Source of the DNA: a virus
Direction: 5' to 3' (one strand)
Virus genome (UHGV): UHGV-0117372
Length of the DNA stretch: 10,031 nt
The translations under genes were made by a program, and so were the position numbers. The notes under the pieces are model-generated. The model did no database searches. It was not told the origin of the DNA and saw only the letters and a list, made by a program, of their open reading frames with translations. Positions 9,297-10,031 of the stretch are shown in pieces. How positions within the stretch are numbered: position 1 is the first letter of the stretch; each line of letters opens with the position of its first letter.

Positions 9297-9328
9297 CCGC
9301 TTGGAAAACGGAAATTATCCCACGCTAA
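8411..9328 (+). CDS. IS5-family (InsH-like) transposase, 3'-truncated and fused to non-IS sequence
   Basis: The N-terminal ~295 residues ([12 protein letters not shown]...[16 protein letters not shown]) match the IS5 transposase as I remember it. The last about 10 codons ([10 protein letters not shown]) come from unrelated flanking DNA and about 30 C-terminal residues are missing, so the product is probably non-functional. Confidence 0.85.
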
Positions 9329-9685
9329 GACTATATTTTGTACAGCAGTGGAGAAGGATGAGAGACCAGCAGTTCATTAACAGGGACTCCTTTTTGCTTA
9401 AGCGGCTCAATGGTTCTTTCTATATAAACCGTATTCCAGAGTGTTATCGCCGCCGTATGTAGTGTCAGCGCCGGTGGCGTGGTAACGCTGATCCTCCCAC
9501 CCCCAGATCCCTGATTTCATTCAGCCGGTGCATGAAGGATGCTCGCCCAAGGGCCTCACCCTTATTCAGCCCCGCCTGTATGCATCGGCCTAAGCCTTTA
9601 TCGCAAAATCAGTCCAGCATAAACAGCGTCCGATCTCTGCAGAAAATCGCCCTCAGCGCTACGAGTTTGAACGCATTTACTCTGT

Positions 9686-10031
9686 TTATAGGTAACATTC
9701 GCTCCACGATATAATGATATCGGCAACGTATTCAGCATCCTGAGCATGTGTCAGAAGGTGATCAGCCTTACCCAGGGAAATGAAACTCTTGGGATGCTTA
9801 GCTGCTTTGAATATTTTCTCGGCCTGATCAATTAACACGGTATCATCTTCAGTCGCATGAAAAATCAGCAGAGGTTTGTTCATGGCGAACACCTTATGAG
9901 CGATTTTGTGTTCCTGAATATTGTCCAGCATCTGTTTCTTTAACGTAAATACCCGCCCGGCCAGCTCAATGGGATAGGCTCCATGCTGGTTAATGTTTTC
10001 AACATCATCCTTAAAAAGACGTTTTACGTGT
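9686..10031 (-). CDS. Partial CDS (C-terminal part), alpha/beta-hydrolase-fold-like protein; N-terminus lies beyond the window end
   Basis: The minus-strand frame is open from the window edge to the stop at 9686 (…KDDVENINQHGAYPIELAGRVFTLKKQMLDNIQEHK…LLIFHATEDDTVLIDQ…GKADHLL…). The D…GxxDHLL pattern resembles the catalytic Asp/His region of alpha/beta hydrolases. The family call is tentative. Confidence 0.45.
   Translation of the reverse strand, partial: HVKRLFKDDVENINQHGAYPIELAGRVFTLKKQMLDNIQEHKIAHKVFAMNKPLLIFHATEDDTVLIDQAEKIFKAAKHPKSFISLGKADHLLTHAQDAEYVADIIISWSECYL

Follow-up and report, generated by a model that had tools for sequence, protein, structure and literature searches.

In phage P1, the ref and mat genes are located just beyond cre. 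The closest P1-like relative of the locus described here is plasmid p2-S1-ZIM-01-A (accession no. NZ_CP145673.1), which contains a complete copy of ISKpn26 (1196 bp) with a 4-bp target duplication (ATAG), followed by a perfect loxP site 268 bp past the right end of the IS and a gene encoding a Cre-type integrase approximately 700 bp past the IS. This plasmid is typed as both IncX1 and IncY and has a size of only 85 kb, and thus represents a hybrid or a reduced form of a P1-like plasmid. At least 15 listed P1-like plasmids of the PLSDB database have ISKpn26 inserted at the same site. P1-like phage-plasmids are documented to exchange DNA with plasmids in events that involve transposable elements (PMC10879196). 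No description of a P1-like replicon combined with ISKpn26 in the arrangement presented below was found in the literature.

Organization of the analysed DNA

The DNA analysed in this study (10,031 nt; hereafter, the window) constitutes the last 10,031 nt of the ENA metagenome contig ERZ1755989 NODE_1613_length_16357_cov_4.43 (k-mer coverage 4.4). It shares 99.7% identity with p2-S1-ZIM-01-A over positions 1-9310, as well as the IS insertion site (position 8343), but whereas the relative carries a complete ISKpn26, the window switches at position 9296 to a terminal repeat of the Tn3 family. The following features were distinguished:

7052-7903, minus strand: c1 repressor gene (ORF of 283 aa; Pfam match to Phage_P7_repressor_C1 in the source contig)
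8014-8223, minus strand: ORF of 69 aa, the last P1-like gene ahead of the IS (from the ORF list)
8343-9295, plus strand: left 953 bp of ISKpn26, IS5 family (alignment to a complete copy, and Pfam)
8343-8358: left inverted repeat of ISKpn26, GGAAGGTGCGAATAAG, a 16-bp terminal repeat (read from the sequence)
8411-9328, plus strand: open fusion frame of 305 aa, comprised of the truncated ISKpn26 transposase and a 10-aa tail from the Tn3 repeat (from the ORF list)
9292-9329, plus strand: 38-bp terminal inverted repeat of the Tn3 family, GGGGTCCGCTTGGAAAACGGAAATTATCCCACGCTAAG, of the form GGGG...TAAG (exact match)
9330-9685, minus strand: decayed 3' end of a Tn3-family tnpA gene, with homology over 9346-9659 (translation, Pfam and tblastn)
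9686-10031, minus strand: 3' part of an alpha/beta-hydrolase gene (114 codons and the stop codon), cut by the contig end (ORF)

P1-like phage-plasmid DNA fills the window up to position 8342, and pieces of mobile elements with cargo lie beyond it; a search of PLSDB revealed that the match of P1-like plasmids lacking the IS to the window also stops at 8342. In p2-S1-ZIM-01-A, c1 is annotated as "phage repressor protein C1" and the 69-aa ORF as a hypothetical protein; by the P1 map, the latter is probably coi. The remaining P1-like genes of this part include phd/doc, a DUF968 gene, a late promoter activator gene and icd/ant, together with two large ORFs (397 and 494 aa) that, by their position on the P1 map, are presumably pacA and pacB.

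An earlier note on this DNA, made from the sequence alone, had interpreted the region 9297-10031 as an element boundary or accessory cargo region, replacing the lox-cre locus expected at this place. This region is indeed foreign to P1 and carries cargo, but 9297 does not mark the boundary between P1-like and foreign DNA; P1-specific DNA stops at 8342. The expectation of lox-cre was justified by the position of loxP beyond the same IS in p2-S1-ZIM-01-A, and the reported lack of resemblance to the immC-loxP-cre neighbourhood of P1 was borne out: loxP is absent from the 10,031-nt window (scan allowing 3 mismatches), and megablast searches with 9297-10031 (735 bp) yielded no match in 50,697 phage records. 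The same query matched 659 plasmid records (421 of which cover at least 80% of its length), mostly from Klebsiella and Escherichia, as opposed to any conserved P1-family locus. Inspection of the G+C content, which the earlier note had proposed as a further check, did not reveal the boundary: the values are 0.467 for 9297-10031, 0.485 for the P1 backbone and 0.558 for the IS, and thus only the IS stands out by its composition.

The truncated copy of ISKpn26

Apart from a 2-bp indel, the IS of the window is identical through position 9295 to the complete ISKpn26 inserted at the same site in p2-S1-ZIM-01-A, and the first departing base is 9296; the truncation of an IS5-family element, noticed previously, was thereby confirmed. 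The right part of ISKpn26 (approximately 240 bp), including the right terminal repeat, is missing from the window. The transposase shows similarity to the Pfam families DDE_Tnp_1 (E = 4.8e-32) and DUF772 (E = 3.5e-21), and is labelled in RefSeq as a member of the ISKpn26 family. Since both the C-terminus and the right IS end are missing, the 305-aa fusion protein is very probably inactive as a transposase. The exact 305-aa protein has been recorded in only two contigs, both originating from short-read metagenome assemblies, and in no isolate genome. In E. coli plasmids, the corresponding IS frame is disrupted by a frameshift and a stop codon. The copy present in p2-S1-ZIM-01-A contains, relative to that of the window, a 2-bp insertion (AT) at the position equivalent to 8436.

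The Tn3-family terminal repeat and the remnant of tnpA

Terminal repeats of Tn3-family transposons conform to the pattern GGGG...TAAG. A 38-bp sequence of this kind, overlooked in the first reading, directly follows the IS, and its initial GGGG (9292-9295) is common to the repeat and to the IS sequence. It occurs once in the window as an exact match, compared to none in 200 shuffled sequences. The same 38-mer was identified in seven species-representative genomes (Citrobacter, Providencia, Proteus, Xenorhabdus, Pantoea, Vibrio and a MAG). In three of these seven (Citrobacter, Pantoea and Vibrio), it is adjoined by an open transposase frame of 1002-1008 aa that ends 3-4 nt inside the repeat. 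Because it adjoins open Tn3-family transposase frames, we recognized the sequence 9292-9329 as a terminal inverted repeat of this family. The three strains, Citrobacter pasteurii CIP 55.13, Pantoea sp. IMH and Vibrio furnissii CIP 102972, carry intact Tn3-family transposons with the identical 38-bp repeat, whose tnpA genes read towards the repeat and share approximately 75% nucleotide sequence identity with the remnant present in the window.

All ORFs of the stretch 9330-9685 encode at most 60 aa, in agreement with the earlier description of approximately 390 bp without a long ORF. The short minus-strand frame that had been taken for a trace of a decayed gene exists as quoted and is not a chance frame, but what had been regarded as a generic remnant is the 3' end of a Tn3-family transposase gene. 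After repair of the reading frame, its product matches the Pfam family DDE_Tnp_Tn3 (PF01526; profile positions 281-380 of 389, E = 9.4e-15) and can be aligned with an intact Tn3-family transposase of 1002 aa (L007), over residues 857-963 of the latter. Two frames contribute to this alignment (tblastn): (i) ...ALTLHTAAITLWNTVYIERTIEPLKQKGVPVNELLVSHPSPL (frame -3), with 79% identity to residues 922-963 of the intact TnpA, and (ii) ALRAIFCRDRTLFMLD, followed by a stop codon and FCDKGLGRCIQAGLNKGE... (frame -1), with 61% identity to residues 857-917. The gene has therefore been damaged by one frameshift (hence the two frames), one internal stop codon and a deletion of 3 codons; furthermore, approximately 101 bp close to its 3' end are missing, together with all of the coding sequence preceding residue ~857. 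Both the orientation of the remnant and its position relative to the repeat agree with those of intact Tn3-family elements, and the equivalent stretch of plasmid pEC517_1 is annotated by PGAP as a Tn3-family transposase pseudogene. The level of identity (approximately 75%), together with the frameshifted, interrupted and deleted state of the copy, indicates that the remnant is related to the intact copies but was not recently derived from them.

The Tn3 end is a relic and not an active transposon, as no intact transposase gene accompanies it. Both the tnpA remnant and the 305-aa transposase frame are most likely inert. In the copy of the block found in an E. coli plasmid, a second 38-bp repeat was not found within 10 kb, and the block terminates at IS26. 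A structured RNA in the orphan stretch was also considered and ruled out, since the Rfam scan of 8200-10031 produced a single, chance-level match (E = 0.78).

The repeat and the decayed tnpA remnant were also identified, with 98.7-99.4% identity, next to other left flanks in Providencia sp. (L008, 298-828) and Proteus vulgaris (L009, 7322-7684), in both of which the left flank is a common sequence unrelated to that of the window. In plasmid pCHS4.2-2 of Klebsiella pneumoniae (~12350-13134), they have as neighbour a truncated gene related to arsA, which adjoins an ars operon. As the left flanks differ, this end of the block has had several contexts, and its junction with ISKpn26 is particular to the lineage of the E. 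coli plasmids. Approximately 5-7 kb from the block, pCHS4.2-2 (IncFIB/FII) contains genes annotated as encoding a Ref-family recombination enhancement nuclease and a maturation control protein (18026-19465). Their presence may be coincidental or may reflect an older P1-derived fragment residing on F-type plasmids.

A 1.4-kb metagenome scaffold (L006, 1-1389; ENA ERZ28660248 scaffold_25117) contains the same junction of ISKpn26 and the Tn3 repeat as the window, with a non-degenerate IS, and is the second of the two contigs recorded with the 305-aa fusion frame. Past the repeat, it carries an open 3' end of tnpA of the intact type (134 aa, running off the contig), which is approximately 75% identical to the remnant of the window. 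Such a structure points either to an exchange at the repeat between two related elements of the Tn3 family, or to a chimera of the assembly graph. Two IMG/VR contigs (L014 and L015) contain the 38-bp repeat, with no P1-like DNA in common with the window.

The hydrolase gene and the cargo block

The stop codon of the hydrolase gene (9686-9688) marks the right border of the orphan stretch, and the gene is oriented convergently to the IS transposase gene. The earlier proposal of a convergent alpha/beta-hydrolase-like gene proved correct: this is a real accessory gene with homologues, and not a chance open frame. The 114 residues encoded within the window show 98.2% identity (2 of 114 residues differ) to a 250-aa protein of E. 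coli plasmids, WP_000734115.1, and the alpha/beta-hydrolase is encoded by PLSDB plasmid records from several genera. The full-length 250-aa homologue matches the Pfam families Hydrolase_4 (E = 1.1e-14), Abhydrolase_6 (1.5e-8) and Abhydrolase_1 (4.3e-6), while the fragment alone produced just a sub-threshold match to Peptidase_S9. The nucleophile elbow (G-x-S-x-G), present as GHSLG in the full-length homologue, falls outside the window; a candidate catalytic Asp (in the motif EDD) and His (in ADH), both assigned by eye, are located within the fragment. The gene is predicted to encode a serine-hydrolase-type enzyme without a phage role. As regards its specific function, no NCBIfam model came near its curated cut-off, the best being a quorum-quenching lactonase (44 versus 400 bits).

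In complete plasmids, the hydrolase gene is the first gene of a redox/stress cargo block of approximately 9 kb. According to the annotation, the genes that follow encode a DMT transporter, an aminotransferase, an SDR oxidoreductase, DsbA, an alkene reductase, a thioredoxin, a carboxymuconolactone decarboxylase, a TetR regulator and OsmC.

The two differences in the hydrolase are non-synonymous substitutions at positions 9827 and 9970 (E to D and V to I), and no PLSDB record contains both of them. Among the 680 PLSDB records that cover the hydrolase fragment, 424 do so at 95-99% identity and one at 99% or more; of the 95-99% matches listed, the 14 that span the whole fragment all show 98.2% identity, which corresponds to two differences. 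Both substitutions are located within 205 nt of the low-coverage contig end, and they may represent either a real variant or assembly errors.

A ready-made block in E. coli plasmids

The region 8343-10031 shows 99.5% identity to 42 PLSDB plasmids that contain the same junction of the IS and the repeat, and all of those listed originate from E. coli; the three that were inspected are typed as IncF, and the pseudogenes of this region are annotated as such by PGAP there. Since the block comprised of the truncated IS, the Tn3 repeat, the remnant and the hydrolase gene already exists in 42 plasmids, the break near 9296 is an old scar, and not the point at which P1-like and foreign DNA met. In the E. 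coli IncF plasmids pEC517_1 (accession no. NZ_CP018964.1) and the AR_0014 plasmid (NZ_CP024860.1), the order of the elements, the junctions and the hydrolase gene are the same as in the window. They differ from it in that their IS remnant is degenerate (frameshift and stop codon) and is flanked on the left by a fragment of an autotransporter gene, whereas the window contains an IS of the intact type, P1-like genes as the flank and the two unique hydrolase residues.

Compared with the E. coli plasmid copy of the IS, the window differs at positions 8355, 8968, 8989, 9003, 9026, 9092 and 9231, and at all seven it carries the P1-type base. The next 64 bp (9232-9295) are identical in both versions of the IS, and from 9296 onwards the window tracks the plasmid block, except for positions 9827 and 9970. 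Seven P1-type bases out of seven, followed by plasmid sequence, are the mark of an exchange within the IS that both replicons have in common. Whether it was real or made by the assembler, this exchange occurred between positions 8343 and 9295. The right-hand part of the window diverges from the plasmid records to about the same extent as the P1-like part does from its nearest relative. As it matches no known plasmid record exactly, it would derive from a variant of the block that has yet to be sampled, and the donor may have had a non-degenerate IS remnant.

The contig ends 735 bp past the junction, inside the hydrolase gene. Using the full window and 8343-10031 as queries for PLSDB, 7900-10031 for complete RefSeq E. 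coli genomes, and exact-pattern scans for the junctions, we found no record of the P1 side joined to the block in PLSDB, complete RefSeq E. coli genomes, IMG/VR, JGI metagenomes or GTDB representatives. The exact-pattern scan for the junction of an intact-type IS with the repeat gave no hits in IMG/VR or in JGI metagenomes, and that for a junction of any type gave none in GTDB representatives and one JGI metagenome contig, of the degenerate plasmid type.

Origin of the join

A Tn3-family transposon was once inserted into a copy of ISKpn26 and removed its right end. The transposase gene of this transposon later decayed to approximately 315 bp of homology beside the 38-bp repeat, and the cargo, with the hydrolase gene first, remains next to the relic. 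The resulting block, including the truncated IS, circulates on E. coli plasmids (IncF in the three inspected). We propose that it joined a P1-like phage-plasmid by homologous recombination between the truncated IS and the resident complete ISKpn26. A single crossover would produce a cointegrate of the phage-plasmid and the plasmid, in which loxP-cre would be displaced to the other junction and not lost, while a second exchange would lead to replacement. We assign a probability of about 0.5 to a genuine event of this kind, whichever of the two products it gave; the odds between a real recombinant and a chimera made during assembly are roughly even.

Assemblers usually break at a repeat of 950 bp instead of crossing it. 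The contig traverses the IS without interruption, with unique DNA on either side of it, which suggests an unbranched path and argues for a real molecule. A real exchange is further favoured by the nature of the right-hand part, an unsampled variant of the block whose donor IS remnant need not be degenerate, by the occurrence of the same junction with a non-degenerate IS in the scaffold L006, and by the documented exchange between P1-like phage-plasmids and plasmids (PMC10879196). It is disfavoured by the fact that the linkage is known from one low-coverage metagenome contig only; with the usual degenerate donor, moreover, the crossover would be confined to the last 64 of the 953 shared bases (9232-9295), approximately 7% if crossovers were uniformly distributed. 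The competing explanation, to which we give a little less than an even chance, is that the assembler joined two plasmids of the sample, one P1-like with a complete ISKpn26 and the other bearing the block with the truncated IS: the de Bruijn graph would have merged the near-identical IS copies, the variant bubbles would have been resolved in favour of the more frequent intact type, and the path out of the IS would have followed the wrong branch. A bubble collapse of this kind would give the P1-type base at each of the seven diagnostic sites, as observed, and the 64-bp stretch identical in both versions ahead of the branch exceeds the largest default k of metaSPAdes (55). The SPAdes-style name of the contig, its k-mer coverage of 4.43 and the coincidence of the window end with the contig end point in the same direction, as does the location of both unique substitutions within 205 nt of that end, the most error-prone zone at low coverage. 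The intact-type IS junction occurs, in addition, solely in two metagenome assemblies, while the 42 plasmid records and the one JGI contig are all degenerate. Apart from the unbroken passage through the IS, this explanation is weakened by the right-hand part of the window, which is identical to no known E. coli plasmid copy, so that a standard ST131-type plasmid would be insufficient as its source unless both differences are errors. A k-mer signature at the contig end was also considered and dropped, since a distance of 61 nt between the last unique substitution and the end is inconsistent with k = 55.

Two further explanations were weighed against recombination across the shared IS. The Tn3-family element could have transposed independently into the ISKpn26 resident in the P1-like replicon, or the block could have been mobilised in trans; the repeat and the remnant are known with other left flanks (Providencia, Proteus and the Klebsiella plasmid), and intact elements with the identical repeat exist. 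We nevertheless regard this as very improbable, because the junction is base-identical to that of the E. coli plasmids, and two insertions at one nucleotide of the IS are very unlikely; in addition, no second repeat was found in 10 kb of the block of the E. coli plasmids, which speaks against transposition. The chance that the region is a native, divergent P1-family locus (a decayed immC/lox gene), or the end of a prophage abutting the chromosome, is close to nil. Nothing except the position beside c1 and the 69-aa ORF speaks for it, and it is refuted by the matches to 659 plasmid records versus none in 50,697 phage records, by the match of the remnant to the Tn3 transposase profile and by the plasmid-borne character of the hydrolase; the native arrangement (IS, loxP and integrase) is, moreover, visible in p2-S1-ZIM-01-A.

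Implications

All parts of this region are known pieces of mobile elements, and an element of a new kind is absent. The link between the block and the P1-like genes may be an assembly artefact, and junctions of this type, spanning an IS close to the terminus of a metagenome contig of low coverage, call for read support before they are interpreted as biological boundaries. We put it at slightly under an even chance that a P1-like phage-plasmid has captured the redox/stress cargo block across the shared ISKpn26, or has fused with a plasmid carrying it. The cargo block has otherwise been seen on F-type and related plasmids, and this would be its first record on a P1-like replicon. The size of a cointegrate would probably exceed what a P1 particle can package. 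If true, the join would also provide a recent example of exchange between a phage-plasmid and a conjugative plasmid driven by IS homology and, should the linkage be real, one more case of a phage-plasmid acquiring, or fusing with, the cargo of a conjugative plasmid, a type of exchange that has already been documented (PMC10879196).
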